A stretch of 64,000 bases of DNA, taken from Promethearchaeia archaeon. Its GTDB lineage: Archaea; Asgardarchaeota; Lokiarchaeia; Sigyniarchaeales; SOKP01. Within the stretch, counting starts at the first letter, position 1. The number at the start of each line of letters is the position of its first letter. Location of the stretch: NCBI GenBank assembly GCA_029856145.1, contig JAHQWK010000004.1:32001-96000 (forward strand), written 5' to 3'. A program made the translations under genes and the position numbers. Below are positions 3,125 to 57,208 of this stretch, piece by piece. A model generated the notes under the pieces. It had not been told where the DNA came from and made no database searches. It saw nothing but the letters and a program-made list of their open reading frames with translations.

Positions 3125-3370
3125 TAAATTTATTGATTATTATTTTATTTTCTCTCTTAATAAATGTTTTTGGTATATCCCTTTAAAATCCATATTTACA
3201 TACAAAAATATCTTAGTAAATTTATTGAATCCTTTTTTGTGGCAAAAAAATTAATGGAATAAATCTTTTGGTATAAATTTTTGAAGTTTCAAATCATCAG
3301 TTGTTACCTTTATTTAATGATTTTTATAAATAATTCAATTGAAATTGGATTTGTGAGTAAATTGCTTTGC

Positions 3371-3631
3371 TTAATAAACAACTTTTGCTGGAATTCTCAA
3401 TTCTTTTTCAGTTTTACGAAAAGGATATATTATAAGGATATCTTTGAAAGTTTCTTTTGGGATTGATTCATCAATAGCGATCATATGATTCTCATAAAAT
3501 AAGAGCATTTTGTGTTCAAAAATTCTCTTATTGTGTAATTTTTTAGGGACATTAAAATTTTTGTCATACTTAAAACCTAAATATTTCTTAAAAAATATTT
3601 GGTAATCTAAAATTATGTCGTATTTCTCCAA
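3371..3631 (-). CDS. Hypothetical protein
   Basis: 86-aa TTG-start ORF; no recognised motif. Confidence 0.4.
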   Translation of the reverse strand: MEKYDIILDYQIFFKKYLGFKYDKNFNVPKKLHNKRIFEHKMLLFYENHMIAIDESIPKETFKDILIIYPFRKTEKELRIPAKVVY

Positions 3632-3907: not shown

Positions 3908-4741
3908 ATGTATGAATATAATATGATAGCAATGGATAAGGCTCAAAATATTAATACTAATTCAGAAAAGTTTCAAATGCTGGGATTTGGATTATTAAAT
4001 ATCTCAGATATAGAATCTGAAGGCACTTTTAAAATCATTCTTCAAAAAGGTATAGGAGTTCCTCTTATCCAAAATATTTTAGAACTCTATAAGAAAGAAA
4101 TTATAACCAAAAAACAAGGAAGCTCAATTATTCCATTAAATGAATTTACCATTCATATCCAATATTTCAATAATAAGGACAAAGAAATTTCTGTGATTTT
4201 GTATATGGAAGAAAAAGAACCAAGTATTGCGGTTAATTTTTCACAGCTTTACTTCCTGTCTAAAAAAATCAATAAAAAAATTCTTTCAAATGCTCCATTA
4301 TCTGAATTAGTCAAAATATTCGAAGACAAAATCAAGATTCCAAAATCTTCTGGAGTCATAGCTATCTTTGTTATTAGTTCCACAGGCAGTCCATTTCTTT
4401 CAAAAATTAATAAAAATCGCAACAATATAGCAGACCATGAAGTTCACATTGGTGGATTTATCTCTGCTTTGTTGTCGTTTTCAAATACAATTATTGGAGA
4501 AGAAACAGGGGCAAAATTGAAGGAAATAAACTTTGGGAATCAGCAATTTTACGTAATATCCAAAAGTAACGTAATTTTTGCCTTTTTAGTAGAAAATATG
4601 AATTCCTTGCTTCAAAGATATATGTATCTTATTGCAGATGAATTCATTTACGATTTCAACAATTATTTAAAAGGTTTTAATGGAGATGTAACTCCATTTG
4701 CATCTTTTGAAGATAAAATTAACCAATATTTTATTATTTAA
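3908..4741 (+). CDS. Protein with a C-terminal longin/sedlin-like domain; first gene of the che cluster
   Basis: C-terminal ~130 aa has the longin pattern IFVISSTGSPFLS...IGGFISALLSFS...LKEINFG...IFAFLV...FNGDVTPFASFEDKI; ends 20 nt before cheW. Confidence 0.7.
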   Translation: MYEYNMIAMDKAQNINTNSEKFQMLGFGLLNISDIESEGTFKIILQKGIGVPLIQNILELYKKEIITKKQGSSIIPLNEFTIHIQYFNNKDKEISVILYMEEKEPSIAVNFSQLYFLSKKINKKILSNAPLSELVKIFEDKIKIPKSSGVIAIFVISSTGSPFLSKINKNRNNIADHEVHIGGFISALLSFSNTIIGEETGAKLKEINFGNQQFYVISKSNVIFAFLVENMNSLLQRYMYLIADEFIYDFNNYLKGFNGDVTPFASFEDKINQYFII

Positions 4742-4761: not shown

Positions 4762-5292
4762 ATGGTTCAAAAACAGGAATATGAAGATATGGATCAAATT
4801 TCCATCCTATCGTTTAAGATTGGTAGGGAAGAGTTCGTTATCGATCTCTTCGATGTGAAAGAAATAATTCAAGCAGGTCTAATAAGAAAATTACCAAAAA
4901 GCTTAGATTATATAGATGGAATCTATAATTACAGAGGGGAAATTATTCACATAATTAATTTAAAGAAAAAATTGAATTTGAATCAATATATTTTGTATTC
5001 AAGAAACTCCTCTATCGAAGAAGAATCAAGTACGTCGAAAAATTTCATTATAATTCTTAAAGTTGATAATAATCTGGTAGGATTTTATGTTGATCAAATA
5101 ATCAGTATTGATCATATTGATCCCACTGAGATTGTTGGATTAAGCCCAATCTTTCAAACTAATGTTGCTATGGAATATATTAAAGGAATTATTAACTTTG
5201 AACGGCGACCAAGAGTTATGCTTGATTTAAGCAAAATTTTTAGTGAAGTTGAGAAATTCAAAATTGAACAAGATTTATCATCATTAACATAA
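4762..5292 (+). CDS. cheW: Chemotaxis adaptor CheW
   Basis: LSFKIGREEFVIDL..VKEII, LPKS..YIDGIYNYRGEII, VGFYVDQI, YIKGI, LDL motifs. Confidence 0.93.
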   Translation: MVQKQEYEDMDQISILSFKIGREEFVIDLFDVKEIIQAGLIRKLPKSLDYIDGIYNYRGEIIHIINLKKKLNLNQYILYSRNSSIEEESSTSKNFIIILKVDNNLVGFYVDQIISIDHIDPTEIVGLSPIFQTNVAMEYIKGIINFERRPRVMLDLSKIFSEVEKFKIEQDLSSLT

Positions 5293-5312: not shown

Positions 5313-5690
5313 ATGACAAATAATAAAAAAAAAGTTTTGATAGTTGATGATGCAGCCTTTACAAGGAACATGCTTAAAAATATAATAAACAAGATCGAAC
5401 AAATTGAAGTTATCGGTGAAGCTTCAAATGGAGTGGAAGCTATCTCTTTATACAAGAAATTAAATCCTGATTTAGTTACTATGGATTTGGTTATGCCTGA
5501 AAAGGGTGGTATTGAGGCAACTGAAGAGATTCTAAAAATTAACTCAAAAGCATTGATAGTAGTGGTTTCTGCACTCGGTCAGGAGGCTCTTGTACTTGAG
5601 GCAGCAAAAAAAGGGGCAAAGGACTTTATCCAAAAACCATTCAAAACAGAGCAAATATTAGAAGTTATGGATCGAATTTTAAAGAAATAA
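5313..5690 (+). CDS. cheY: Chemotaxis response regulator CheY
   Basis: Stand-alone REC domain: VDD, phospho-Asp in TMDLVMP, VSA, KPF; SD-like GGAG upstream; lies between cheW and cheA. Confidence 0.93.
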   Translation: MTNNKKKVLIVDDAAFTRNMLKNIINKIEQIEVIGEASNGVEAISLYKKLNPDLVTMDLVMPEKGGIEATEEILKINSKALIVVVSALGQEALVLEAAKKGAKDFIQKPFKTEQILEVMDRILKK

Positions 5691-5774: not shown

Positions 5775-7850
5775 GTGTCATCTAAAGACGATATAAAGCT
5801 TTTCATAAGTGAAGCCGAGGATCTGATTCAAAAAACGGAAGATGAAATTCTAAAATTAGAAGAAAATCCAAATGATTTAAAACCAATTCAGGAACTTTTT
5901 TTCACATTTCATGCACTAAAAGGATTAACAGCGATGGCAGGTTTTGACAACTTATCTAAATTTTGTCATCATTTTGAATCTTTTTTAGAAAATACTAAGG
6001 ATAAGAAAGAGTCTAAAATCAAAAGAGAAAATTTCATCGAAATGCTATTTGAGAGTATTGATGTATTAAGAAATGTCATAAAGAGAGTAAAAAAAGGAGA
6101 TTTAAGTGATATTGATAATAAATTTGTAGAAGATATTAAAAATAGTTTTGAAAGTTTTGAGAATGAGTATGATATCACTTTTATTCAGCCTTTAAACTCA
6201 GAGGAAGTTACCCAAATCCTTAAACAAAAAGATATCAAATCATTTAAGATATATATTCGCCTTGAAGAAACATGTGTTTTCAAAAAGGTAAGGTTATTTA
6301 TTATATTTAGAGCATTAAATGAAAATGGAAAAATTTGCTGGACTAATCCTGCTCCTGAAGATTTAGAAAAAGCTACTCTCAAAAATGAGTTTGAAATTTA
6401 CTTTTTTAGCAATAAAAATAAGGATAATATTTCTCATGTTTTAGATGAAATTCTTGAAATCGAAAGTATAGTTATTACTCCATTAAAATCTGAAGAATTC
6501 ATAAAAATAATTAATAGTCTTAAGGAAAAATGGGAAAATGAAAAACCAGAACCCTTAAGCGATGATTTCTTTGAAGATGATTTTGAAGAAGACGTTGATA
6601 CTCAAGAACTGGAGCGAGTTTCACAAATTGTAGGTGATTTCTCAGAAGATACCCTTAAAATAATGAGTGTTAAAGTTAATATTGAGTATATAGAGGAATT
6701 AATGAATTATTTTGGAGAATTAGTAATAATGAAGAATCATATCAATCAACTTCTAAAGGAAAAACAAGATAGAATAATCGTACGGTTAATAGATAAAATG
6801 GATAAGCCTTTTCTAGATATACAAGAAATACTTTTTAGATTAAAACTAGTTCGAGTTGATTCAACATTCAGAAAATATAAAAGACTTGTTCGCAATGTAG
6901 CAAATGAAACTGGTAAGAAAATAAAATTAATTCTTGAAGGAATAAATGTAGAAATTGATAGAAAAATCCTAGAAGAAATTAACACTCCGCTGGTTCAATT
7001 AATTAGGAATGCAATTTATCATGGAATCGAATCTCCAAGAGATCGAATTAAAAAACGGAAAATTGAAATTGGTATATTGAAAATAAAAACATTTAGAAGA
7101 GCAGGATCCATTTTCATAGAAGTTCAAGATGATGGCGCGGGGCTTAATTATGATACAATAAGGGAAAAGGTTGTGAAAAAAGGTTATTATGACTCAATTG
7201 AAGTGGAACAACTAGCAAACGAGGATTTACATAAGTTTATACTAATGCCCGGGTTCTCAACACTTTCAGAAGCAGATATAATCTCTGGTAGAGGTATGGG
7301 TTTAGCAATCGTGGCTGAAAAAATAAAAGAATTAGGTGGTGATTTTACTATTCAATCTCAAGCTGGTGTTGGTACAAAATTTACAATCATCGTTCCATTT
7401 ACAAGAGCAATATTAAAAGCACAACAAATTCAGATTTCTGATGATTTATTTGCAATTCCAACTGAAAACATTAAACAAATATACTTTTTCAATCCAAGTC
7501 AAGTTGAATATGTAGATGGCCAACAATTTTACAAGATAAATTCAAAATTAATGCCAATTATTCATTTAGATGAGTATTTAAATATGGTAGAAAAAAGTAC
7601 AACAAATTCTCATAAAAAAATTGCAATATGGTGTCAAGGAGATGAGGATAGTTCAGCAGTGTTTATTGCAGATAAACAATTACAACAATTAGATGTAGTT
7701 GTGAAACCATTCAAGTCTAACTATTCAGATTCACGGGATATTTTAGGATCAACAATTACAGGAGAAGGTTCAATATGTCTAATTATCGACGTTTTAAGTA
7801 TAATTTCATCTATTTTAAATGAAAATATAATATCAAATTTAAATTTATAA
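5775..7850 (+). CDS. cheA: Chemotaxis histidine kinase CheA (Hpt-P2-dimerisation-HATPase-CheW)
   Basis: Hpt FHALKG, P2 region KKVRLFIIFRAL, LMNYFGELVI, IRNA..HGIE, DDGAG, PGFST, SGRGMGL, C-terminal CheW domain; SD AGGTGA before the GTG start. Confidence 0.96.
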   Translation: MSSKDDIKLFISEAEDLIQKTEDEILKLEENPNDLKPIQELFFTFHALKGLTAMAGFDNLSKFCHHFESFLENTKDKKESKIKRENFIEMLFESIDVLRNVIKRVKKGDLSDIDNKFVEDIKNSFESFENEYDITFIQPLNSEEVTQILKQKDIKSFKIYIRLEETCVFKKVRLFIIFRALNENGKICWTNPAPEDLEKATLKNEFEIYFFSNKNKDNISHVLDEILEIESIVITPLKSEEFIKIINSLKEKWENEKPEPLSDDFFEDDFEEDVDTQELERVSQIVGDFSEDTLKIMSVKVNIEYIEELMNYFGELVIMKNHINQLLKEKQDRIIVRLIDKMDKPFLDIQEILFRLKLVRVDSTFRKYKRLVRNVANETGKKIKLILEGINVEIDRKILEEINTPLVQLIRNAIYHGIESPRDRIKKRKIEIGILKIKTFRRAGSIFIEVQDDGAGLNYDTIREKVVKKGYYDSIEVEQLANEDLHKFILMPGFSTLSEADIISGRGMGLAIVAEKIKELGGDFTIQSQAGVGTKFTIIVPFTRAILKAQQIQISDDLFAIPTENIKQIYFFNPSQVEYVDGQQFYKINSKLMPIIHLDEYLNMVEKSTTNSHKKIAIWCQGDEDSSAVFIADKQLQQLDVVVKPFKSNYSDSRDILGSTITGEGSICLIIDVLSIISSILNENIISNLNL

Positions 7851-7912: not shown

Positions 7913-9934
7913 ATGGGTTTTAAAAAGATTGACCATGACGAATTAAAAACAAAAATTAGCCCAAATTTTCTTGGCATCCCTATAAGGGAAGGTGGAAAGT
8001 TAGTACAGAAAAGTCAAAGAGAAAAGAAAATTGAATCTAGTTATACAGGTTCAATGTCAGAAGTATTAATATTAAATGAAGAATTTTTAGAATTCCAATA
8101 TCAAAATGATGGAACAAGAAAAGCAGTTACAGGTAACGGAAATATCTCAATATTTAATAATTCTGTTAAAGATAGAATTTGGGATGCAAATTTACAGTTT
8201 TCAGGCTCACAATTTGATAATCAAGAGAAAGAAAACAATATAAATTTAGGGATTTTTGAGCCTAGTTCAAATAAAATATTAAAATATGAAATTGTAAATT
8301 CCGATGATTTACCGGATTTAATAAAAGTAAATGAAAATATTGAAGTTCTGAGTGAAGATATTACTCAAGAAGGGTTAGAATTTCCTGAAAATGAAGAATT
8401 AAATGTATGTAATAAAAAACATTATTTACTAGTAATTGGAAAAGAAAATAAGGTAAAATTTTTAATTGATATAGTAAATGTCTCAAATTCGATGTTAGAA
8501 AATATCAAGTTTAAGAAATTATTTGTTAATAATTTTTATGACTTAGAATTTGACTGTAGCAAGAGCAAAGAATTTAAATTTACTAATAATTCTGTAGAAT
8601 GTACTATAAACGGTCTAAACCCTGGAGAAAAAGCAGAATTAACAATCACCGCTAATATTTTCCCTAAGAAGAAGGAAAATATTAAAACTGGTAAAATCGA
8701 AATAACCTACAACTTATCATCAAACGTAATTTCAGGCGTGAAAATCAATCAATTCTCAGCATATTCTCATGCAATGCATGCTATTGAGAAAGTAGAGAAA
8801 AATGATGCTCCAAATCATTGGGAATGTTCATTAATTTTCGAAAACCATAGTGACTTTAAATTGAAGTTAAATTCAATTCTGATCTATGATAAGACCAAAT
8901 CGAAAAAAATTTTAGATTTAGATTTTAGTACATCTGGTACTACAAAAATTAATCCTCGTGGAATATATAAAACCCAACATTTTAATTTGATTGATGAAAA
9001 AGAACCTATTTTCTCAAGAAAAGTCGAATATTCTGTTGATTATAAAACAGAGAACAATTCAATGATTACCACGAGATTTGATGACATTATCTTTAAAATA
9101 GTTAATATTACGATAAAAAAGAAATTACCTGAACAAGAAATTAAATCATTTGAGGAGACTACACTAAATTCTGAAATTATTATAAACAACCAAGGTACTG
9201 TTCCAATTAAAGGACTTCGAATAGTTGAAAAAATTCCTGAAGATTTCTTGCCACCAAGAAATTTATCTGATTTTACACTGTATAAATCATCTGGTAAACT
9301 AGAAATCGATGATATTGAATTAAATTTAAGTCCAGATGATGATGATCCCTCACATGAGCATATTATTGAAATAAGTATTAATTTAAAAAATGATACTTCA
9401 AAATCAGTTATTAGTACAGAAGATTTCTTAGAATTAAAATATCCATTTAAAGCAATTACTCCTAATTATAAAAAAGATTACGATTTCCCTGTTAAAGTCT
9501 ACGCTTATTATCCGATGTATGAAAAATCTGAAGTAGAAGGGCTTAGGGGACATTATGTTTTAATGGATGATCTCTCTAGTAAGGATACGTCTTCTTTAAA
9601 AATCACACATAAACGGCGGAAATTAATGATTGGAAAACAAATCTTTCCTGGAAGGAGTAGTGATGAATTTGCTATTTATATTGTGGCAAAGAACGGTTCA
9701 AATATTAAACTTAGTGATGTAGACATTACAGATGCTTTTCCAAATTCTTTTGAACTAATTTCCTCAAATGTAGAACATAAGATTAGCAAATCTAAAAATA
9801 ACGGAGAACAAAAAATTTCTTTCACAATCGATTCACTCCTACCTTATCAAGAAAAAGAGATAATGTATTATCTAAAAAGCTTAAGCGGAAAGGATGTATC
9901 ACAATCAGAATTAGAGTCATTTTTTGTTGGATAA
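7913..9934 (+). CDS. Large cytoplasmic beta-sandwich repeat protein (several DUF11/Ig-like modules)
   Basis: Repeated modules such as ITIKKKL..EIIINNQGTVPIKGLRIVEKIPEDF and IGKQI..IYIVAKNGSNIKLSDVDITDAFPNSFELI; no signal peptide or TM segment; SD GGAGG. Confidence 0.6.
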   Translation: MGFKKIDHDELKTKISPNFLGIPIREGGKLVQKSQREKKIESSYTGSMSEVLILNEEFLEFQYQNDGTRKAVTGNGNISIFNNSVKDRIWDANLQFSGSQFDNQEKENNINLGIFEPSSNKILKYEIVNSDDLPDLIKVNENIEVLSEDITQEGLEFPENEELNVCNKKHYLLVIGKENKVKFLIDIVNVSNSMLENIKFKKLFVNNFYDLEFDCSKSKEFKFTNNSVECTINGLNPGEKAELTITANIFPKKKENIKTGKIEITYNLSSNVISGVKINQFSAYSHAMHAIEKVEKNDAPNHWECSLIFENHSDFKLKLNSILIYDKTKSKKILDLDFSTSGTTKINPRGIYKTQHFNLIDEKEPIFSRKVEYSVDYKTENNSMITTRFDDIIFKIVNITIKKKLPEQEIKSFEETTLNSEIIINNQGTVPIKGLRIVEKIPEDFLPPRNLSDFTLYKSSGKLEIDDIELNLSPDDDDPSHEHIIEISINLKNDTSKSVISTEDFLELKYPFKAITPNYKKDYDFPVKVYAYYPMYEKSEVEGLRGHYVLMDDLSSKDTSSLKITHKRRKLMIGKQIFPGRSSDEFAIYIVAKNGSNIKLSDVDITDAFPNSFELISSNVEHKISKSKNNGEQKISFTIDSLLPYQEKEIMYYLKSLSGKDVSQSELESFFVG

Positions 9935-9983
9935 ATAGAAAAAAAAATAATAAAATTTAAGAAAAAAAAATGGAGGAAGTATT

Positions 9984-10835
9984 ATGAGACTACAATATTA
10001 TGAAACAATGGATGATAAATCGAAAGAATATGTATTGTATCTTATCGAGCAGATTGTTCCACAATTTACTAAAAGTGAACTGGATACCTTTTTACAAGAT
10101 CTTACTATAAAACCTACTAAGAAAAGTAAGAGTTCAAAATCAAAATCAGATCAAAAATACATTCAAATTGGGAATGATATTGGAAAAACTGCTGATTTAT
10201 CCAAACTAACTAAAGAACAATTAAGATTATGTTTTCAAATATTTATAAGTAGAGAAAAAAATGATACATTTGCAGTAAAGTGGCGTTTTTATCAATACAT
10301 TAAATACGTGTTAAATCTAAATATAAAATCAGTAAAAATAAATCTTGATCCAAATATTGATCGATTATTAGATTTTATTATTGAAACTGTCGATAAGGAA
10401 ATAATTCTAGTTTTATGCTATGATGTTTTAGAATTAAAAGACTTTAATACAGCAATAAATCAATTAAATGAATTTGCAAAAAAACAAAATTTAATTCCTG
10501 ATAGGATTATTTTTACGACAAGTAAATCATTCCGGAATATACCAATTGATAGTCCTATTAAAATCATAAATAAGGAAATAGAACCAGAGTTATGGATCGA
10601 ATGGATTGAAGAAAATTGCCCTTTCAATAAAGAAGACTTGTTAATTTTAAATAACTCTGAATTAAAAGTTGCAGGTTTTAATTTTACCAGTACAGACGAT
10701 TTATTAAATTATATTTTTAAGTATTCAAATGGCGGGGGTCAAATTTCAATTTATAAGCAATTAGATTTTTTTACTGAAGTTAGTGAGGAGGAACCCGAAG
10801 TAGAATTAATTTGGAAAGGAATTATGTTAAAATAA
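9984..10835 (+). CDS. Hypothetical protein in the che cluster, possibly a degenerate PD-(D/E)XK-like fold
   Basis: 283-aa ORF with SD GGAGG; LDFIIET..EIILVLC resembles a nuclease core but lacks the ExK motif. Confidence 0.55.
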   Translation: MRLQYYETMDDKSKEYVLYLIEQIVPQFTKSELDTFLQDLTIKPTKKSKSSKSKSDQKYIQIGNDIGKTADLSKLTKEQLRLCFQIFISREKNDTFAVKWRFYQYIKYVLNLNIKSVKINLDPNIDRLLDFIIETVDKEIILVLCYDVLELKDFNTAINQLNEFAKKQNLIPDRIIFTTSKSFRNIPIDSPIKIINKEIEPELWIEWIEENCPFNKEDLLILNNSELKVAGFNFTSTDDLLNYIFKYSNGGGQISIYKQLDFFTEVSEEEPEVELIWKGIMLK

Positions 10836-10878: not shown

Positions 10879-12858
10879 ATGATAAAAAGCGAAACAGAAG
10901 GAATTGAGTTTGGAGAAAGTGTAAATGTTGTAATAATTCAAGTTCTTGATGAGAAATATCTCATTGAAGTAGAAAATGTTAAAGAAATATATGTCCCAGG
11001 AGATAAAATAGTTCCAATTCCATTAACAGAAAAAAGTATAGTTGGTATCATTAATATTAGGGGAGAGATTTATTCAATCATTTCATTAAGACATAATATT
11101 AATGATAATGATGTTGATTATGGGTTGAGTGATAAATCAAGAATTCTATTATTAGAATATAAAGATTTAAAAATTGCATTGTTAGTAGATGCAGTAATAG
11201 GAGTTAAAGATATTCCTTTTTCAGTCTTTAAAAAACAGGGCACGATTGTAAAAACTAATATTGATTTTAGATTAATTAAACTAACAGGCATTTTTCAAGA
11301 TGAATCATTAATATTATTAGATCTAGATGCTTTAATTTTACCCTACATTAAATCCTTAGGTAGAAAAATAGAGAAAAAGGTAGAAGCAAAACCGAAAATT
11401 ATTGGAGGACCTAAAGTAAAACCCAAACTATCTCCTAAACCGACACCTACAGTTGAATCCACAGTTGTAATCCCTCAGGAAACCTACGTTCCAATGAACT
11501 TATCATCCATTCCTGAAGATGAAATTGGCAAGGGGGTTTCTTTATCAGCTGAACAAGAAGATATACTCAAAGAAATAGGCAATATTGGTGCTGGAAATGC
11601 GGTCACAGCCTTATCTCGATTAGTTAAAAAGAAAATTGATGTGACCTTAACTGATGTAGGAATAATACCTTTAGATGAATTGCCAGAACAATTTGGTGGA
11701 TCTAAAGAGAAGGTATGTGGAATTTTCTGCCATATAGATAAACCATCTCAAGCAACTATTTTAAATATTTTCGAAATGACTCCTTTGATGCAAATGATTG
11801 CAGATTTAGCAGGAAAAAAATCTAAAATCAATCCAAGTAAAGTTAAAACTAAAAAAGATCTTGATGATTTTGCAGTTTCTACAATTGTAGAAATGGGAAA
11901 TATTATGGCGGGGCATTATGCTTCAGCACTAGCAGATTTATTAGGTACAAAATTAATGATTGACATTCCTGAATTTACGATGAGTGAAGCTGGAGAGATT
12001 GGAGAATTTCTAACTAAAGAGTTGAAATCAATTGCTGAATTTTTCATAATAATCAAAACTTCAATAAAAGTCGCCGATTTGAAACTTAAAGGAATGTTTT
12101 TCTTTATCCCTGATCTTGAAACTTTGAAAATATTTTTCGACAAACTAGGAATAGAGCATGAAATATCTATCAAAAGTTTAAAAACTCAGAAAACACTTGA
12201 GCTAATAGATGTTTCTAATATAAAACTCACAGAAATTCAAAGAGATGCTTTACAAGAAGTTGGTAATATTGGTGCAGGAAATGCGGCTAATGCATTAGCT
12301 CAAATGATTAATAAAAGAGTTGATATAAATATCCCATCTGTTGAAATGGTTGAATTAGATGAGTATGCTAATACAATTAGTAATAAGAATGAAAAACTCT
12401 TAGTTGCTTGGAGCAATGTTATTGGTAAAACAAGAGCTACAGTTTTAACATTGTTTAACATTAAAGATGCAATTGATATAACATCCATAATCTTAGATGA
12501 TAGAGACAAGAAACAAATTGACTTAAGGAAGAAAATTATTATGGCATCAGATTTTCCAGAGCTTTATCATAGTGCAATTTCAGAACTAGGTCACATCTTG
12601 GGAAGCCATTATGTAAGTGCAATAGGTGATCTATTAGGCCTGCGACTCATGACCGAGCCCCCTGATGTCTCTGTCGATACAGGAAACCAATTATTCGAAA
12701 TATTAAAAGAGGAAATTGGTTTACTTAAGAAATTATCGTTAGTTATCACAACGAGCGTTATAATCACAGATATCAAAATTACAGGAACGTTCTTATTCAT
12801 ACCTAATTTAGAAACATTACAAGAATTATTGGATGCACTTTTAAGGTTTTATTCATAA
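10879..12858 (+). CDS. CheW-CheC-CheC fusion protein
   Basis: N-terminal CheW domain (VKEI, IVPIP, VGIINIRGEI, LLVDAVIGV), Pro/Lys linker, then two CheC domains (EIGNIGAG/EMGNIMAG and EVGNIGAG/ELGHILGS). Confidence 0.9.
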   Translation: MIKSETEGIEFGESVNVVIIQVLDEKYLIEVENVKEIYVPGDKIVPIPLTEKSIVGIINIRGEIYSIISLRHNINDNDVDYGLSDKSRILLLEYKDLKIALLVDAVIGVKDIPFSVFKKQGTIVKTNIDFRLIKLTGIFQDESLILLDLDALILPYIKSLGRKIEKKVEAKPKIIGGPKVKPKLSPKPTPTVESTVVIPQETYVPMNLSSIPEDEIGKGVSLSAEQEDILKEIGNIGAGNAVTALSRLVKKKIDVTLTDVGIIPLDELPEQFGGSKEKVCGIFCHIDKPSQATILNIFEMTPLMQMIADLAGKKSKINPSKVKTKKDLDDFAVSTIVEMGNIMAGHYASALADLLGTKLMIDIPEFTMSEAGEIGEFLTKELKSIAEFFIIIKTSIKVADLKLKGMFFFIPDLETLKIFFDKLGIEHEISIKSLKTQKTLELIDVSNIKLTEIQRDALQEVGNIGAGNAANALAQMINKRVDINIPSVEMVELDEYANTISNKNEKLLVAWSNVIGKTRATVLTLFNIKDAIDITSIILDDRDKKQIDLRKKIIMASDFPELYHSAISELGHILGSHYVSAIGDLLGLRLMTEPPDVSVDTGNQLFEILKEEIGLLKKLSLVITTSVIITDIKITGTFLFIPNLETLQELLDALLRFYS

Positions 12859-12973: not shown

Positions 12974-13519
12974 ATGTTAAAAACTAGTTATTACGATTAT
13001 ATTTATAAAGTTGATGGAGAAACTCTTAAACTTCGACCAGAGAAAATTTTTGAAGCTGGGGGGGTATATCTAATTATAGATAAAGAATTAAAATTGATTT
13101 GGATATGGGCAGGTAATCATTCACGTTTATTTCACAGATACATGGCCGCAAATTATGCTGGGAAACTAAAAACAAAGAAAAAATTCTATAACTTCAAATA
13201 TGAAGTCATAAAGCAAGGGCTTGAACCTACTGAATTTCATATAATCTTTAAGGAAATCAAAGAGAACAATGCTGAATTGAATTATCCTGGACAATCTAGA
13301 CATGGAATGATTAAAAATGAGACTTCTGGTTCAACTGGTTTACCAAGCCAGAAAGTCGAATCAGAAATTACGGAAAGTAATTTAAATTTATCAAGATCAG
13401 TGAAATCTCGTATTAAAAAGATTTTATCTGAAATTAAAGAAATACAAATGCATATAAAATATTCAATGAATCATATTCAACAACGTTTTGCTGAAATTGA
13501 AAAGGTATTAGATAAATAA
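12974..13519 (+). CDS. Gelsolin/villin-like single-domain protein with a C-terminal coiled coil
   Basis: IYKV...VYLIID...IWIWAG..S...AA.YA..L...VIKQG.EP.EF is the gelsolin-repeat consensus; C-terminal heptads IKKILSEIKEIQMHIKYSMNHIQQRFAEIEKVL. Confidence 0.85.
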   Translation: MLKTSYYDYIYKVDGETLKLRPEKIFEAGGVYLIIDKELKLIWIWAGNHSRLFHRYMAANYAGKLKTKKKFYNFKYEVIKQGLEPTEFHIIFKEIKENNAELNYPGQSRHGMIKNETSGSTGLPSQKVESEITESNLNLSRSVKSRIKKILSEIKEIQMHIKYSMNHIQQRFAEIEKVLDK

Positions 13520-13530
13520 AGTGTTTAGAA

Positions 13531-13737
13531 GTGATACGAATTGATGATATTCAAATTGATGAGGATTACTATGACCTTCTAATTCACTTATTAATGAAAA
13601 CGACTGGATTGAATTTAGACTATTATGGAAGAAATTTTGTAGAAAAAAGAATTAAATCCAGAATGATACGAGTTAACTCTCAGAGAGACTTAAACTTAAT
13701 AGATTCATCAAATTGCATATATATGAAAGATTATTAA
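13531..13737 (+). pseudogene. cheR: cheR remnant: N-terminal domain fused in frame to a C-terminus-like tail, SAM-binding domain missing
   Basis: YDLLIHLLMKTTGLNLDYYGRNFVEKRIKSRMIRVN matches the CheR N-terminal domain; ends ...NCIYMK like CheR C-termini; only 68 aa; sits directly before cheB. Confidence 0.8.
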
Positions 13738-13742
13738 AGAAA

Positions 13743-14888
13743 ATGTCAATTAATGTATTAGTTGCAGAAGACTCAAGTTTTCAGAGAAAATTGATTGCAG
13801 ATATGTTATTAACAAGTGAGGAAATTGCAACTGTAGATATTGCAAGAAATGGGAGAGAAGCAATTGAAAAAATTGAAAATACAAATCCAGATGTATTAAT
13901 ATTAGATTTAATGATGCCAGAAGTTGATGGAATAACCGTATTCAAGTTTCTTTCAGAACATTATCCAATACCTACAATTATATTTTCTGCTAAGAATCCA
14001 GAAACATTAGAACCTTCCGTTCAAACATTATTAATGGGGGCTTTTGATTTTTTACCAAAACCTCAAGGTTTATGGGAAGAGGAATTCCCAAAATATAAAG
14101 AAAAATTAGTTTCTAGTACTTTATATGCTGGAAAAATTAAAAAAACCTATGAGAAGCGTAATCTTTTAATTAAAAAATCAGCTGCTAAACCTCCTTCTTT
14201 GGATGCATATAGCGAGCAATATCAGATAAGTATAAAATCAAAACCAAAAATAATAGAGGTTCCAAAGGAAAAAATAATGAAAAGAAGTAGGATACAATCC
14301 AATACAATAGTCATTGGTACTAGCACTGGGGGCCCTAGAACTTTAAAATCAATATTAAAAGAAATCCCTAAAGATTTTCCTAGCCCAATTTTAATAGTAC
14401 AGCATTTAGATCCATACTTCATGAAAGAACTTTCAAAATCTCTAAATCAAATATGCAATATTGAAATTAAAATTCCTGTAAATGGAGAAAAAATTCTTCC
14501 TGGAAAAGCTTATCTTAGTCCAGGAGGAAAACACATGAAAGTTGTTCTGAGAAATAATATACCATGTATTAAAATATTTAAAGGCGAACCAGTAAATTTC
14601 TGCATGCCTTCTGTGGATGTATTGTTTTTTTCAGCAGCAGAAGTATATAAAAATCAAATACTTGGGATTTTATTAACCGGATTAGGAGAGGATGGGGCTG
14701 CCGGATTAGAAGCAATCAAAAAACAAGGTGGCAAAACTATCGCTGAATCAGAGCAAACGTGTGTAGTTTATGGTATGCCTAAAGCAGCTGTAAAAAGAGG
14801 AGCTGCTAACTTTATTGTCCCAAACTATGAAATTAAAGATCACATGATGAGATTTACTAAAAGAAAGGAAATTAACATAACAAATTAA
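13743..14888 (+). CDS. cheB: Chemotaxis methylesterase/deamidase CheB (REC plus esterase), copy 1
   Basis: REC AEDS..LDLMMP..KP; catalytic GTSTGG, VQH, LLTGLGEDG, VVYGMP; start moved to ATG 13743 to avoid overlap with cheR. Confidence 0.95.
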   Translation: MSINVLVAEDSSFQRKLIADMLLTSEEIATVDIARNGREAIEKIENTNPDVLILDLMMPEVDGITVFKFLSEHYPIPTIIFSAKNPETLEPSVQTLLMGAFDFLPKPQGLWEEEFPKYKEKLVSSTLYAGKIKKTYEKRNLLIKKSAAKPPSLDAYSEQYQISIKSKPKIIEVPKEKIMKRSRIQSNTIVIGTSTGGPRTLKSILKEIPKDFPSPILIVQHLDPYFMKELSKSLNQICNIEIKIPVNGEKILPGKAYLSPGGKHMKVVLRNNIPCIKIFKGEPVNFCMPSVDVLFFSAAEVYKNQILGILLTGLGEDGAAGLEAIKKQGGKTIAESEQTCVVYGMPKAAVKRGAANFIVPNYEIKDHMMRFTKRKEINITN

Positions 14889-14912: not shown

Positions 14913-15452
14913 GTGAATAATATTAAAACCTATGGACGTATTGAAAAAATGGATAGAAATGGTGAGGCTTTCTTACCCATAGGTCATTATTTTATCACAA
15001 ATTGTAAGAATAAACCAAAAAATATTCATCCAAAAGTATCAATTTATGGATTAGGCTCTTGTATTGCTCTAATTCTTATTGATTTCAAAAATAAAGTATG
15101 TGGAATGTCTCACATTTTACTTCCTAAAGCCCGTCTAAATAAAACAATAGATTATCCTCATAAATATGCAGATCTCTCTTTAAAATTATTAATTCAAGAT
15201 CTAAAAAAGCATGGAGCTGTGAAAGAAAACATAATGGCAATCATAGTAGGGGGTTCAAAAATTTTTAATTTAGATGAAAATTTTATGGGGATTGATAATA
15301 CTAAAGCTATTAAAGAACAATTGGAAAAATTAAAGATTAAAGTTATCGGAGAAGATACTGGAGGATCTGAAGGGAGGGGGATAATATTTGATACTAAAGA
15401 TTTCGCTGTTTACGTTAAATTAACAAGAGAACAAAATTATAAAAAAATTTAA
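14913..15452 (+). CDS. cheD: Chemoreceptor glutamine deamidase CheD
   Basis: GLGSCIAL, GMSHILLP, KYAD, GGSKIF, EDTGG..GR. Confidence 0.93.
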   Translation: MNNIKTYGRIEKMDRNGEAFLPIGHYFITNCKNKPKNIHPKVSIYGLGSCIALILIDFKNKVCGMSHILLPKARLNKTIDYPHKYADLSLKLLIQDLKKHGAVKENIMAIIVGGSKIFNLDENFMGIDNTKAIKEQLEKLKIKVIGEDTGGSEGRGIIFDTKDFAVYVKLTREQNYKKI

Positions 15453-15496
15453 TATATAAAAAGAGAATGTCATAAAAATTGGAAGAGGAAATAAAA

Positions 15497-16165
15497 ATGA
15501 ATGAAAAGGTCACAAATCAATCTGCTAAGATAAACCTAACAGAAGCACAATTGGATATGTTAAAAGAAATTGGCAATATCGGTTCTGGACATGCAATAAC
15601 AGCACTTTCTGAGATATTGAATAAAAATGTAGAAGTTTCATTAACATCAGCAGAAATACATTCCTTTTGGAAAGTTCCAGATCTGTTTGATAATCATAAT
15701 ATAGAAGTAGTAGTTATATATTCTGAAATTCCCTTTAATTCGGATCTCGCAATTATCCAAATATTTCCCAAAGAATCAATAATTAATCTGATAAATTTAT
15801 TAAACGATTATGATAAAAAATCCATAGATAATGTAAATAGCAATAATGATTTGGACGATTTCTCCTATAGCATTATAAATGAAATCGGTAATATTTTGAG
15901 TGGCCATTATGCTAGTGCTTTAGCAGATTTGTTGTCAATTAAACTAATCCCAAAGGTGCCAAAAGTAGCAATTGATACATTAAATGCCATCCTAAATTGC
16001 ATTATCGCAAAATATTCCCAATTGATAGATTATTTGATATTAATAAATACAAAATTAATAGTTTCAGATTTGAATATAAATGGAACAATTTGCCTTATTC
16101 CAAGTATTGAAATTCTAAGGAGTTTATTTGAGATTTTAAACGTAAAATATGATATGAACTTATAA
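15497..16165 (+). CDS. cheC: CheY-P phosphatase CheC
   Basis: DMLKEIGNIGSGHAITALS and EIGNILSG..P motifs; SD GAGG before ATG 15497 (TTG 15479 is an alternative start). Confidence 0.93.
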   Translation: MNEKVTNQSAKINLTEAQLDMLKEIGNIGSGHAITALSEILNKNVEVSLTSAEIHSFWKVPDLFDNHNIEVVVIYSEIPFNSDLAIIQIFPKESIINLINLLNDYDKKSIDNVNSNNDLDDFSYSIINEIGNILSGHYASALADLLSIKLIPKVPKVAIDTLNAILNCIIAKYSQLIDYLILINTKLIVSDLNINGTICLIPSIEILRSLFEILNVKYDMNL

Positions 16166-16178
16166 GTAGGAGTTTTAT

Positions 16179-17555
16179 ATGTCGATAGACGTATTAATAG
16201 CCGATGACAGTATGTATTTAAGAAAGAGTATAGCAGATATCCTTAAAGAACATGATTTAATAAATATAGTTGATTATGCTAAGGACGGAATTGAAGCGGT
16301 TAAATTTGTAAAAAAATACAGCCCTGATGTTTTAGTTTTAGACTTAGTGATGCCTAAAATGAACGGATTAGATGCATTCAAACTAATTATGGAAGGCCAT
16401 CCAACTCCTACAGTTATTCTATCAGCTATTAGCCCTAAAAATTTGGATTCCTCTATTCAAGCATTGTTAATGGGAGCTTTTGATTATATTATAAAACCTG
16501 GAGGCCTTGGTGCTAAAGATTTGCCTAGGTTTCGTGAAGAATTACTTGCTAAAGTATTATTAGCTTCACAATCTCAGATAAAGAGAATTTTTAAGACAGA
16601 AGAAAATTTATTAAGTAAGCGTAAATCACTTCGCCAAGAAATGATCGATCGAATTTTTGATTTTGGACAATACATAAATCAACTAAAACCTATTGAAGAA
16701 ATTGAAGAAAAACGGGAAATTGACTCTTTTGAAATAATGAAAGTAAAGGCAATTCTCAAGGATGAAATTAAACCAGCAGTAATTGATGAAACCTCCAGTA
16801 AAACAGAAATCAAATCAACTAAAAAACTAGAGGGTGAAATCAGTTCAAAAATACAATCAAAATCAAGTGAATCATTAAAAATACTTAAAACAAGAAAACA
16901 GAAATTAGCTTCTGTATTAGATAATAAAAAGAAAGAAGTTGCATCCATTCCTGATCTTTCCCCTGTTAGAGGATTTGCTTTAACTTCAAATGTTATAGTT
17001 ATGGGTGCTAGTGTGGGGGGCCCCAGAACAATTACTACAATCTTAAGAGAAATTCCCAGAAATTATAACACTCCAATTTTAATTGTTCAACACTTATCTT
17101 CTCATTTTACAGAAGCTTTTGCAGATAATTTAAATATGGAATGCGAATTAGAAATAAAAGTTGCGAAAAACGGAGATCAACTTCAATCAGGTCAAGTTTA
17201 TATCGCACCTGGAGATAAGCATATGGAAATTACCGTAGATAATAAAACACCTTCAATTAAAATCTATAAGGGAGCACCAGTTAATTTTTGTATGCCTTCT
17301 ATCGATGTTTTATTTTTTTCTGCGGCAAAAATTTTTAGAAATCGAGCTATGGGGATACTTCTAACCGGTATGGGTTCTGATGGTGTTGAAGGGTTAGGAG
17401 CAATAAAAAGAGTAGGCGGAAAAACAATCTCCGAGGCAGAGGAAACATGTATACTATATGCAATGCCAAAATTCGCAGTAGAAAAAGGTTTCGCTGATTT
17501 TATCTTGCCAAATTATGAAATTAAAGATCAAATTACTAAATTCATTAAAAATTAA
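16179..17555 (+). CDS. cheB: CheB copy 2 with a long charged interdomain linker
   Basis: REC ADDS..LDLVMP..KP; roughly 130-aa Lys/Glu/Ser-rich linker; GASVGG, VQH, LLTGMGSDG. Confidence 0.93.
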   Translation: MSIDVLIADDSMYLRKSIADILKEHDLINIVDYAKDGIEAVKFVKKYSPDVLVLDLVMPKMNGLDAFKLIMEGHPTPTVILSAISPKNLDSSIQALLMGAFDYIIKPGGLGAKDLPRFREELLAKVLLASQSQIKRIFKTEENLLSKRKSLRQEMIDRIFDFGQYINQLKPIEEIEEKREIDSFEIMKVKAILKDEIKPAVIDETSSKTEIKSTKKLEGEISSKIQSKSSESLKILKTRKQKLASVLDNKKKEVASIPDLSPVRGFALTSNVIVMGASVGGPRTITTILREIPRNYNTPILIVQHLSSHFTEAFADNLNMECELEIKVAKNGDQLQSGQVYIAPGDKHMEITVDNKTPSIKIYKGAPVNFCMPSIDVLFFSAAKIFRNRAMGILLTGMGSDGVEGLGAIKRVGGKTISEAEETCILYAMPKFAVEKGFADFILPNYEIKDQITKFIKN

Positions 17556-17585: not shown

Positions 17586-19775
17586 TTACCAAGATATTCC
17601 TTTAAAAAACTTAATCTCTTGAATTAATTTTTGAGATTCGTGTTGTGGAATCTCCATAAATGCATAAAATTCATTCTGCCAAAATGCTCTTCCGGAACTA
17701 GTTGACCGAATCTCTTCAGCAAATTTAATTGAATGTCTCACAGGTATTAAAATTTCCATAACTGCTTGATATTCTTTGTCTTGGTCTATATTCTTAATCT
17801 TAGTAGAATATTTTGATAGTAATGTAATAGTATTTTTAATGTAATCAGGTGGAAGTTGGATGATGGTATGATATATTGGCTCTAAAAGAATTAAATCCGC
17901 TTCAATTAATCCAGTCTTGATTGCCTCATAAAACATAGAAGATAATTCGGTAAAAACATTTTCATGTGGAATATTTTGAATATTCAAATCTTCAATTGTA
18001 ATTTTAATTTCTGCTAATTTTTCACTACAAAGTGGACCATTTAAATGGATTTTTTCAATTATCTCAGAGATTGCATTTTTATAAAATTCATTTAATTCAA
18101 ATTCTCCCTTGTATATCAATATGTTTTGATCATAATCACTCATCCAGAAATTTTCGATCTCTTCTTCACTAAGACATGTTTTTTCGCTCAAGATCTCTTT
18201 AAATTTTATGATAGGTTTTATTGTTTTATAATCAATATTGCGAAAAAACCTTACAGTTTTATCATCTAGCCGTTCAATTTTCAATTTAAGAGAACTTTGA
18301 CTATTGGGAGAGTTTACTGATATTAAAGAAGAATGATTTCGACATGATTCTTTAAAAACAGCTCTAGGTTCAGAAGTAGAAACATTTACTCCTCTTTTTC
18401 CAATTTCATTTGCAGATACTTCCAAATGGAGAGGACCTGCACCCGACAAGAGAAATTCACCATTTTCTTCATTTATATCGAATTTCAGATTTGGATCTTC
18501 AATTAACAGATTTTCTATTAATTCTTTCATTTTATCTAGATCTCTTAGATATTCTGGTTCAATTGAAACGGAAACGACGGGGCTTGTAACATATTTCACA
18601 CTTTCAAATGGTACCATGTCATCAATATGGTTACTGTCTATTATTGTTTCACCACTTTTTATCTTCTTGAGGCCTTCTATTGCAAGGATATTACCAACAG
18701 GTATGGTTTCTACTTGCTCCCTTCTTTGTCCCATGAAAATGGCAATTCGTTGAATTTTCTCATAAGTATTTTCATTTAAAAGAAAAATTTCTTTTTTGTT
18801 TGTACAGCTTCCAGAAAAAATCCTTCCCGTTGATATTAATCCGTGTTTATCAACTTGTACTTTACTTAAACACACAATTAAAGGACCTTTTGGGTCACAA
18901 TTTAGCATAGCTTTTCCTAATTCAGAATTAATATCTCCATCCCAGATTTTTTCAATTCTATATTTTTGTGCTTCTATTGGATTTGGTAAATGATCCACAA
19001 CCATCTCCAATATAGCTTTATGAATTGGAAAATATGTAGCCAAATCAGCATAAGTTTCCTTTGTATAGGTATCTTTATTATACCTCTCTCTAATACCTAT
19101 AAATTTCAAGTTGCTTTTTTCTATAATGTTTAATGTAAAACCCCATTTATGAAGAGCTGAACCAAATGCAACATTTCCTGCTAAAGGTGATACTTTCCAC
19201 CTCTTATTAAAAGGATGTTCAGCATATCTTTCTATTAGAGTGTTGAATGACTTAATTATTCGTATATACTTCTTTTTTATATCTTCATCAGAAAGCTTCA
19301 ATTCTCTAATTAGGCGATCTACTTTATTAATGAATAATACTGGTTTAACTCCTTCTTGGAGGGCTTGTTTAATTACAGTTTCAGATTGTGTAATTACTTC
19401 TTCAACTGCGTCGACTACCACTACCACTCCATCCACTAATCTTAATGCGCGAGTTACTTTTCCACTAAAATCTAAATGACCCGGTGTATCAACTAAATTA
19501 ATAAGAAAGGGTTCATGCCCTTCAAGAGATTTCTCATAATATAAAGAAATGTTTGCTGATTTCATTGTAATGCCTCGTCTTTGTTCTTCTTCAAGAAAAT
19601 CTAAAGCACGAGCTTCACCTGCCAAATCTGGTGATAAAAATCCTGCTTCACTCAGTAAAGAATCAGAGAGTGTTGTTTTTCCGTGGTCGATGTGCCCTAC
19701 TAAAGCCATACACCTTATTCTAGTAGGGTCCTCCATTAAATTTAGTATTTCCACAATTTCTTTCCTTCGAGGCAT
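17586..19775 (-). CDS. Elongation factor 2 paralog (aEF-2p type)
   Basis: GHIDHGKTT, RGITM, DTPGHLDF, NKVD, GSA, LLEPIY; domain IV loop reads NIPHENVF rather than HRG. Confidence 0.9.
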   Translation of the reverse strand: MPRRKEIVEILNLMEDPTRIRCMALVGHIDHGKTTLSDSLLSEAGFLSPDLAGEARALDFLEEEQRRGITMKSANISLYYEKSLEGHEPFLINLVDTPGHLDFSGKVTRALRLVDGVVVVVDAVEEVITQSETVIKQALQEGVKPVLFINKVDRLIRELKLSDEDIKKKYIRIIKSFNTLIERYAEHPFNKRWKVSPLAGNVAFGSALHKWGFTLNIIEKSNLKFIGIRERYNKDTYTKETYADLATYFPIHKAILEMVVDHLPNPIEAQKYRIEKIWDGDINSELGKAMLNCDPKGPLIVCLSKVQVDKHGLISTGRIFSGSCTNKKEIFLLNENTYEKIQRIAIFMGQRREQVETIPVGNILAIEGLKKIKSGETIIDSNHIDDMVPFESVKYVTSPVVSVSIEPEYLRDLDKMKELIENLLIEDPNLKFDINEENGEFLLSGAGPLHLEVSANEIGKRGVNVSTSEPRAVFKESCRNHSSLISVNSPNSQSSLKLKIERLDDKTVRFFRNIDYKTIKPIIKFKEILSEKTCLSEEEIENFWMSDYDQNILIYKGEFELNEFYKNAISEIIEKIHLNGPLCSEKLAEIKITIEDLNIQNIPHENVFTELSSMFYEAIKTGLIEADLILLEPIYHTIIQLPPDYIKNTITLLSKYSTKIKNIDQDKEYQAVMEILIPVRHSIKFAEEIRSTSSGRAFWQNEFYAFMEIPQHESQKLIQEIKFFKGISW

Positions 19776-55148: not shown

Positions 55149-57173
55149 ATGGTTGATAACCCCTCTAATCAAGATTCTTATGATGCTGACGATATTAAGG
55201 TTTTGAAAGGTCTCGAAGGAGTAAGGAAGAGACCCGCAATGTACATAGGCTCAACCGGCAAAACAGGACTTCATCACCTTATTTTCGAAGTCTTAGATAA
55301 TTCTGTTGACGAAGCGATAGGAGGTTATGCAGATGAGATAAAAGTTACACTTTATAAAGATAACACAGTTCAAGTATTCGATAATGGACGCGGGATTCCA
55401 ATTGATATACACCCAGAATTTAAGAAACCTGCTGTAGAAGTAATCATGGAACATTTACATTCTGGTGGTAAGTTTGACAGTAAAAGTTATAAAATTTCAG
55501 GTGGTTTACATGGTGTTGGATTATCCGTTGTTAATGCTTTAGCAGATTGGATGAAAGTAGAAATTTGTCGAGACGGGAAAAACTACACACAGAAATTTTC
55601 AAAGGGGAAAAAAGCTTCAGAGCCAACAGTAGTAGAATCTAACACAAAGGAGTCATATACTAAGATACAATTTTACCCAGATAAAGAGATTTTTGAATTT
55701 GAGACAGAAGCTCCTATTTTTAATGCCCATACCATTAGTAATAGAATGCGTGAACTAGCCTTTCTTACACCTCATACTAGGTTTGAACTTCATGACAAAT
55801 TCAACGATGAAAAGGAAGAATTTCACTATGAAGGTGGCCTTAAAGAATTTATCTCGTATTTGAATAAAGATAGGCAGCCACTTCACAATGATATCATATT
55901 TATAAGTGATTCAAGTAAAGATCCGGATGGAAAAGATGTTTTTCTGGACCTCTCAATGCAATATACTCAAGGATACCAAACAAATATTTTAACATATGCA
56001 AATACGATCAACACTATTGAAGGCGGAGTACATCTCACTGGATTTAAATCTGCTCTAACAAGAACTTTTAATTCATATGTAGAAAATTTTATGGAAAAAA
56101 AGTATAAAGGACACGTTTTAAGTGGAGCTGATACAAGAGAAGGCTTATCAGCTGTCATCTCCGTTAAACTTCCTGATCCTCAATTTGAAAGTCAAACTAA
56201 AATTAAGTTAGGTAATCCTGAAATTAGACAGATTATAAGCCAAATTGTCACTGATCGATTGAATCAGTATTTAGAGGAGCATCCACAGACCGCTAAAAAA
56301 ATTATATTAAAAACAATCAATGCAAAAATAGCGAGAGAAGCAGCTCAAAAAGCAAGGTCGCTAATTCGAAGGAAATCAATATTAGATAGTGCTAGGATGC
56401 CTGGAAAACTAGCCGATTGTTCATCAAATGAACCAGAAAAAGTAGAAATTTTCATTGTGGAAGGTGATTCAGCAGGGGGACCTGCAAAACAAGGTAGAGA
56501 TAGAACTTATCAAGCGATCCTTCCCATTAGAGGCAAAATTCTCAATGTTGAAAAAGCTAGAATAGATAAAGTATTACAAAACAACGAAATTCAAGCTATT
56601 ATAAAAGCTTTGGGAGTCGGATTTCAAGATTCCAGTCAAATGAATGGAACAAATGGTGAATTAGAAGAAAATGGAGAAGAAACTGAAGAAAACTTCAATT
56701 TAAGTAAACTACGATATCATAAAGTAATAATCATGTGCGATGCAGACATTGACGGTTTTCACATTGAAACGTTATTACTTACTTTCTTTTTTAGATACTT
56801 AAGACCTTTAATAGACGCGGGTCATTTATATATTGCTGTACCTCCTTTATTTAAAGTTTCTTATAAAACGACAAAAGAATATGTGTATTCAGATAATCAG
56901 AAAGAGAATTTACTTAAAAGTATCAAGGAAAAATACAAATTAAAGAATATGGATTCTATTAAAACTCAGCGCTATAAAGGGCTTGGGGAAATGAATGCAG
57001 ATGAACTTTATGATAATACAATGAAAAAAGACTCAAGAAGATTGAAAAAAGTAACATATGAAAACTATCTCGAAAATGATTTAATCTTTACAAAATTAAT
57101 GGGTAAAGAAGTAAAAGCCCGCAAAAAGTTCATTATTAGTAATTTTGATGAAGTTAAAACATTAGATATTTAA
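55149..57173 (+). CDS. gyrB: DNA gyrase subunit B
   Basis: VRKRPAMYIG, EVLDNSVDE, DNGRGIP, GGLHGVG, EGDSA, PIRGKILN, DADIDG, QRYKGLGEM. Confidence 0.97.
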   Translation: MVDNPSNQDSYDADDIKVLKGLEGVRKRPAMYIGSTGKTGLHHLIFEVLDNSVDEAIGGYADEIKVTLYKDNTVQVFDNGRGIPIDIHPEFKKPAVEVIMEHLHSGGKFDSKSYKISGGLHGVGLSVVNALADWMKVEICRDGKNYTQKFSKGKKASEPTVVESNTKESYTKIQFYPDKEIFEFETEAPIFNAHTISNRMRELAFLTPHTRFELHDKFNDEKEEFHYEGGLKEFISYLNKDRQPLHNDIIFISDSSKDPDGKDVFLDLSMQYTQGYQTNILTYANTINTIEGGVHLTGFKSALTRTFNSYVENFMEKKYKGHVLSGADTREGLSAVISVKLPDPQFESQTKIKLGNPEIRQIISQIVTDRLNQYLEEHPQTAKKIILKTINAKIAREAAQKARSLIRRKSILDSARMPGKLADCSSNEPEKVEIFIVEGDSAGGPAKQGRDRTYQAILPIRGKILNVEKARIDKVLQNNEIQAIIKALGVGFQDSSQMNGTNGELEENGEETEENFNLSKLRYHKVIIMCDADIDGFHIETLLLTFFFRYLRPLIDAGHLYIAVPPLFKVSYKTTKEYVYSDNQKENLLKSIKEKYKLKNMDSIKTQRYKGLGEMNADELYDNTMKKDSRRLKKVTYENYLENDLIFTKLMGKEVKARKKFIISNFDEVKTLDI

Positions 57174-57208
57174 TTCTTACCTATTAAATTATAATAATTG
57201 AAATATAA

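Follow-up and report, generated by a model that had tools for sequence, protein, structure and literature searches.

The route from sensing to the cytoskeleton in Asgard archaea is the question raised by the che operon described here. Chemotaxis genes are present in some Asgard (Loki) genomes (PMC9834061). Asgard crawling by means of actin-dependent protrusions has also been described, and a Lokiactin pull-down yielded gelsolins and an ARF GTPase, with chemotaxis unmentioned (PMC13716822). The operon lies in a stretch of 64,000 nucleotides (the window) from the genome called G000 below, which belongs to a Loki-type Asgard archaeon, and its first gene encodes a protein with two predicted eukaryote-like longin domains. 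No paper on this operon or on the tandem-longin family was found in the literature covered, most subscription journals being outside that coverage. What does a longin protein do at the head of a che operon?

The open reading frame of 277 codons at 3908-4741 is a real gene. Its true start is probably 3923 and not 3908, which gives a protein of 272 residues, because most homologs (labeled mostly Promethearchaeota) are about 270 residues long and in the close relative G060 the upstream ATG runs directly into a stop (ATG-TAA). The first-pass annotation had placed the gene at the head of a cheW-cheY-cheA operon, ending 20 nt before cheW. Both statements are borne out: the frame ends at 4741, cheW starts at 4762, and the order read in the window is longin, cheW, cheY, cheA, followed by the genes listed below. 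The 20 nt gap contains an AGGT motif, and the corresponding gap is 16 - 20 nt in most orthologs. A sigma-70 promoter scan gave chance-level results, the sigma-70 model not being applicable to archaea. The protein has no Pfam match. Nor did Pfam searches with the full set of 91 aligned members point to an informative family; a single member matched Fuz_longin_1 (E 0.0015).

3347-3445, reverse strand: remnant of a divergent Zn-ribbon/roadblock-like gene, the roadblock-like part of which is putative (tblastn 51% over 33 residues, E 0.002)
3908-4741, forward strand: tandem-longin gene, which opens the che operon
4762-5292, forward strand: cheW (PF01584)
5313-5690, forward strand: cheY (PF00072), between cheW and cheA
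5775-7850, forward strand: cheA, with Hpt, P2, dimer, HATPase and CheW domains
7913-9934, forward strand: 673-residue DUF11/Ig-like protein, a conserved operon member
9984-10835, forward strand: 283-residue orphan protein, a conserved operon member
10879-12858, forward strand: CheW-CheC fusion with four CheC stretches
12974-13519, forward strand: protein with one gelsolin domain and a helical tail at the C terminus
13531-13680, forward strand: N-terminal remnant of cheR
13713-14888, forward strand: cheB1
14913-15452, forward strand: cheD
15479-16165, forward strand: cheC
16179-17555, forward strand: cheB2, the final gene of the operon

The gelsolin assignment is based on a profile search against the Protein Data Bank, in which the Asgard gelsolin structure 7c2f was matched (E 2.7e-7), along with 2DGel proteins and villin. 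A gelsolin-like gene is found in 20 of the 21 operons read, and the exception is an operon with truncated sequence. The che locus of the window is undergoing trimming, as evidenced by the remnants of cheR and of the Zn-ribbon/roadblock-like gene, the latter being intact at the corresponding place in most relatives. An intact-looking cheR match is present elsewhere in the genome, on contig C29, and a second, broken match is found on contig C2 near 205.4-206.3 kb. An EF-2-like GTPase gene (17586-19775, reverse strand) is convergent on the operon and marks the deletion junction in two other genomes, G074 and G139.

The DUF11 protein and the orphan (7913-10835) also occur together in the che operons of two families without the double longin, f2 and f3; the two genes may thus be an older output module. 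The che operon of G028, a member of f2, ends with a 155-residue gene (L124:1280-1747) that has the look of a single longin by eye and has no Pfam match. Proteins of about 550-570 residues that match only the Hpt and P2 domains of CheA, with apparent P2 repeats, are encoded outside che operons (L127:2810-4453, L128, L129 and L130).

The structure of the full tandem-longin protein was predicted with AlphaFold2 using 91 sequences (pLDDT 84.6, pTM 0.82). The model consists of two β-β-α-β-β-β-α-α units and, unlike roadblock proteins, has no N-terminal helix. The two units correspond to the following segments, both assigned from the predicted fold and a fold search:

3974-4339, forward strand: N-terminal longin domain, residues 23-144
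4343-4738, forward strand: C-terminal longin domain, residues 146-277, with a conserved GFISA helix

The C-terminal half had been described from the start as having a longin-type secondary structure. Structure prediction and fold search agree with this, giving matches to Sec22b (Z 13.5, rmsd 2.7, 120 residues aligned), Vamp7 (Z 12.6-12.8), Trs23 and the small chains of COPI and AP complexes. The N-terminal half, which was modeled alone with a pLDDT of 93.2, has the longin of Lst4 as its top match (Z 10.7, rmsd 3.1, 114 residues aligned). Close behind are a Loki longin at 10.6, a subunit of TRAPP at 10.4, a chain of GATOR1 at 10.2 and Vamp7 at 10.1. Of the earlier description of this half as a diverged longin or uDENN-like unit, the longin part stands. 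A uDENN-like half is possible but is not singled out, because the Z scores of uDENN and classical longin structures are tied, and a full uDENN/DENN module was rejected, because the first longin is followed by another longin, which completes the protein, and not by central DENN and dDENN lobes. A plain roadblock fold is ruled out by the topology of both halves; roadblock structures score close (up to Z 12.3) but over fewer residues than longins. Foldseek returned zero matches for the N-terminal half alone at E 0.001, and no solved chain covers both halves jointly (TM by query at most 0.32). The best Atlas matches to the whole protein, at 0.51-0.53, are all unnamed proteins. Both halves are longin domains according to the predicted structures. 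Homologs of the two domains are also found singly, swapped in order (P0144) or joined to a Zn ribbon (P0146), and thus the two domains are separate modules.

The conservation of the operon was examined in 151 genomes of the order, of which 44 carry this type of CheA; the counts are descriptive because the genomes are kin and not independent. A longin ortholog is positioned immediately 5' of cheW in 39 of the 44. The adjacency spans eight genera and two families and is retained down to 37% identity, and the gene order is conserved among the operons of the relatives. Four of the five remaining genomes (G095, G044, G150 and G104) were rejected as counter-examples, since an N gap or a contig end precedes their che genes. 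Only G117 is truly without a longin at this position: an MCP gene is joined to cheW, and the operon and the GTPase described below are present. The operon has a fuller form in the relatives, preceded by a membrane-protein/MCP pair and including an intact cheR as well as a 319-residue roadblock-like/Rab fusion (Roadblock-Rab), which was taken from G131 for modeling:

L106:13774-14733: roadblock-like/Rab fusion of G131, assigned from a best score to Ras/Rab (PF00071) plus a roadblock-like domain

Orthologs of Roadblock-Rab are found in 33 of the 44 genomes with this CheA type versus one of the 107 others, and the gene is located inside the operon at 13 of the 21 operon loci read. It comes next after cheC in many relatives; in the window the short gap between cheC and cheB2 contains no remnant of it. 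The close relative G060 keeps the operon copy, G000 has lost it, and the nearest copy in G000 is a 433-residue paralog (54%) on contig C9. The longin-cheW pair is kept with no detected Roadblock-Rab ortholog in G000 and nine other genomes, some of them incomplete; the ortholog was not found in G062, G089, G065 and G103. The GK[S/T], switch-I Thr, NKxD and ETS motifs of Roadblock-Rab are preserved. Where Ras has DxxGQ, Roadblock-Rab has DxGG followed by L, K, A, I or F, and so it is without the catalytic glutamine.

No archaellum markers were found for the Che system of family f1. Archaellin was found neither in G000 (97% complete) nor, above the cut-off, in any of 131 f1 genomes, 43 of which have CheA, and the control genome G032 was positive. 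CheF was likewise found in none of the 131 and not in G000; its absence is weaker evidence than that of archaellin, because the CheF model also missed the archaellin-positive control. CheA, W, Y, B, C, D and R and the MCPs are all present in G000, in common with archaeal chemotaxis systems that act through CheF and the archaellum, whereas here archaellin and CheF were not found and longin, gelsolin, GTPase and orphan genes are added. Locus L131:7238-11397, on contig C20 of G000, encodes a secretion-type ATPase with small and large membrane proteins; it may be a type IV filament locus, and by the archaellin search it does not resemble an archaellum locus.

The explanation preferred here, with a probability of roughly 0.4, is that the double longin is a non-catalytic GTPase-binding platform inherited with, and serving, this Che system: a long-retained accessory of the family's archaellum-less signaling pathway. 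It would most likely bind a Ras-family GTPase and position or activate it, as a GEF-like protein or an adaptor and not as an arginine-finger GAP. The prime candidate partner is the glutamine-less Roadblock-Rab fusion of the same operon in most relatives; where this protein has been lost, its role would fall to another GTPase. Conjectural parts of this picture are GEF-like activity, regulation by CheY-P or the receptor array, and an effect on gelsolin or actin. A far more specific version, in which the double longin replaces CheF as the output adaptor, acts under CheY-P or the receptor array, switches Roadblock-Rab and steers actin protrusions via the operon's gelsolin, is quite improbable.

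Residues conserved specifically in the che-linked clade are Q55, N56, E59, E64, S73 and P76 in the N-terminal half, and P162, R171, E206 and Y240 in the C-terminal half. They map to helix 1 of the N-terminal half and to the hairpin of strands 1 and 2 of the C-terminal half. Helix 1 and the strand 1-2 hairpin are surfaces that longins use for GTPases, and from this general property of the fold we infer that the clade-specific residues lie on GTPase-contact surfaces. When the longin of G131, encoded at L106:737-1558, was co-folded with the Roadblock-Rab of that genome, the pair scored 0.36 compared to 0.00 for the best control, a weak pass of a mark that 58 of 80 solved complexes and two of 110 mismatches attain, with only seven solved complexes and both mismatches at 0.60 or below. 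The runs agree in at least 62% of contacts, and the pLDDT of the partner is at least 75. The score may reflect likeness to solved complexes of longin or roadblock proteins with GTPases. A natural fusion, P0188, combines a distant longin homolog with a Roadblock-Rab of the same build, and a homolog of the N-terminal domain is encoded 6 nt 3' of a GTPase gene. GTPase neighbors mean little, because G000 has 85 Ras-family matches; a conserved ortholog within the operon means more. The first-pass annotation had proposed a possible bridge from Che signaling to a small GTPase switch. The presence of Roadblock-Rab in the same operon in most relatives and the weak co-folding pass are in favor of this idea, while the operon of the window itself has no GTPase.

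Dimers of longin or roadblock proteins serve small GTPases as platforms and act mostly as GEFs, although many longins are not GTPase regulators (PMC10933270). The longins that function as GAPs form a subclass recognizable by a conserved arginine finger and by a GP motif preceding strand 2 (PMC12290439). An arginine-finger GAP of the NPRL2/FLCN/SMCR8 type was rejected for the double longin, as neither feature is conserved. A GP motif is absent from both halves, the C-terminal half having G-S-P instead, and in the N-terminal half Arg occurs in at most 10 of 39 sequences at any position; the conserved R171 (after strand 2) and R237 (helix 2) are both in the C-terminal half.

The double-longin family is wider than the operon, being found in 99 of the 151 genomes. 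In a phylum-wide profile search (300 genomes, E 1e-25), the full-length family was detected only in f1 (46 of 68) and not outside the order; the search of the order added one f4 genome. A tree of 89 full-length members separates the che-linked clade A (47 rows) from all other members, which are divided into group B (31, roadblock-adjacent) and clade C (11, receiver-adjacent). G000 has one A copy and one B copy, the latter in the following locus:

L035:8009-10867, contig C9 of G000: 102-residue membrane protein, short MCP, double-longin paralog and roadblock-like gene

The paralog at the B locus is reduced to the C-terminal longin alone in several relatives. In genus g4 the family is present in 39 of 42 genomes and CheA in two of 42, groups B and C being common without che genes. 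A Rag-, Arf- or Rab-like gene is found within about 6 kb of eight of the 11 clade-C paralogs. The clade-C paralog of G051 (L096:3578-7305) stands at the start of a series of GTPase genes (Rag-like, longin-Arf-like, Rab-like) that lies 3' of receiver and PAS kinase genes.

Does the longin gene depend on the che genes? The che operon has been deleted behind an intact longin gene in G074, G147 and G139, at three separate positions of the tree; the scar in G147 consists of the first cheW codons fused to the end of cheB2. No CheW domain was found in these three genomes (G074 and G147 are 97% complete) or in G056, all of which have an intact longin ortholog. The dN/dS ratio of the longin is 0.065-0.23 across all 16 pairs, 0.065-0.073 within the clade of G062, G089 and G065, which is without Roadblock-Rab, and 0.10-0.12 for G074. 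No excess of private changes was seen in G074 (11 versus 19-23, no acceleration), G147, G139 or G000, while G062 has 20 versus 7. The gene is thus not strictly dependent on CheA or on Roadblock-Rab, since it stays intact after che deletion and purifying selection on it continues in genomes without the GTPase. Independence from che genes, which would speak against the original proposal, is therefore found in part: against these genomes and the B and C paralogs stand the adjacency to cheW and the absence of a che-clade ortholog from 24 of the 28 che-less genomes of G000's genus.

These observations bear on a rather unlikely alternative, according to which the protein is an independent longin regulator of a general GTPase or membrane pathway that shares only a promoter with the che genes and heads the operon because of co-expression or history. 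Its persistence in the four che-less genomes, the low dN/dS where tested, the excess of family members over this CheA type, and the che-clade members at other loci in G117, G096, G055 and G130 are all as expected from such a regulator. The deletions may nevertheless be recent, as the cheW/cheB2 scraps of G147 indicate, and the visible ones are only those that spared the longin. Moreover, the che-clade longin and the che genes are usually absent together, and the adjacency has been retained over large sequence distances and in a second family.

About equally doubtful is a role on the input side, where the longin pair would bind the chemoreceptor array or a receiver-domain protein, as an adaptor or sensor with no GTPase function. 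All three paralog groups adjoin two-component genes. An MCP gene is directly 5' of seven of the 39 che-linked copies, clade B has an MCP gene upstream in eight of 31 and a HisKA-receiver gene directly 5' in eight, and all 11 clade-C copies adjoin a receiver or kinase gene, a feature used in defining that clade. A and B loci alike have a membrane-protein/MCP pair on their 5' side, which points to an ancient unit of receptor and longin, and NPRL2-like longins fused to two-component domains have been reported in Asgard archaea (10.1101/2020.10.19.343400). However, neither an MCP nor a receiver gene is present at most clade-B loci, and G147 retains the longin with no MCP and no CheW found. The sensor folds GAF, PAS and LuxR do appear lower in the fold matches of the N-terminal half (Z 7-8), but longins are ahead of them by 2-3 Z units. 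It is very unlikely that the longin belongs to a Che system whose output, in place of a GTPase or actin, would be gene expression or the motor of a type IV filament. An ATPase of the secretion type is encoded next to a membrane protein at C20:132 kb, and scattered type IV filament genes occur in many Asgard genomes (PMC13705601), but no pilin, ATPase or CheF gene was recognized in the operons read, which have the longin, gelsolin and GTPase genes and the two orphans as their additional genes.

The preferred GTPase-binding platform can be compared to several known assemblies. In longin GEFs of the Mon1-Ccz1/TRAPP type, a longin dimer offers its paired first helices to the GTPase. The eukaryotic longin GEF platforms Mon1-Ccz1, TRAPP Bet5-Trs23 and Fuzzy-Inturned resemble the double longin in the predicted longin fold of both halves and in the candidate Rab-like client, whereas here the two longins are in one 272-residue chain with less than 20% identity, in a che-operon setting and with no known partner subunits. 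The N-terminal half scores on Lst4, GATOR1 and C9orf72 chains as well as on other longins, but unlike the GAP complexes GATOR1, FLCN-FNIP/Lst4-Lst7 and C9orf72-SMCR8, the protein lacks both the GP motif preceding strand 2 and a conserved arginine in its N-terminal half, and it has no DENN body. By analogy, the Frz-MglA/MglB system of Myxococcus may be similar in combining a Che-like pathway, a Ras-like GTPase and a roadblock domain in one proposed circuit; Frz-MglAB has an MglA-class GTPase separate from MglB, along with RomR/RomX, whereas here the roadblock forms one protein with a Rab-like GTPase, a longin accompanies them, and the GTPase is missing from the window's operon. The domain repertoire is that of the Asgard longin, roadblock and RB-GTPase proteins (PMC10933270; PDB 8yqg, Z 10.6-11.8). 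In MK-D1, a GTPase gene seldom lies in one operon with a longin or roadblock gene, so that partners are difficult to match (PMC10933270), whereas the conserved operon described here offers a candidate longin-GTPase pair.

What is new here is the separate fold test of the N-terminal half, the three paralog contexts, the survival of the gene after che deletion or GTPase loss, the absence of the GAP motifs and the weak co-folding pass. The operon names a specific set, longin, GTPase, CheY and gelsolin, as a candidate link between chemical sensing and a small-GTPase switch. If the bridge exists, it would be a prokaryotic forerunner of receptor-GEF-GTPase-actin steering, and were the output-adaptor version true, a bacterial sensing pathway would be wired to a eukaryote-like GEF-GTPase-actin chain. 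If there is no bridge, what remains is a tandem longin that is specific to this lineage and linked to two-component loci. Elsewhere in G000, four actin-family matches are found, on contigs C7, C13, C24 and C3 (best E 3e-132), and the genes at 55149-59659 of the window read as DNA gyrase B and A.
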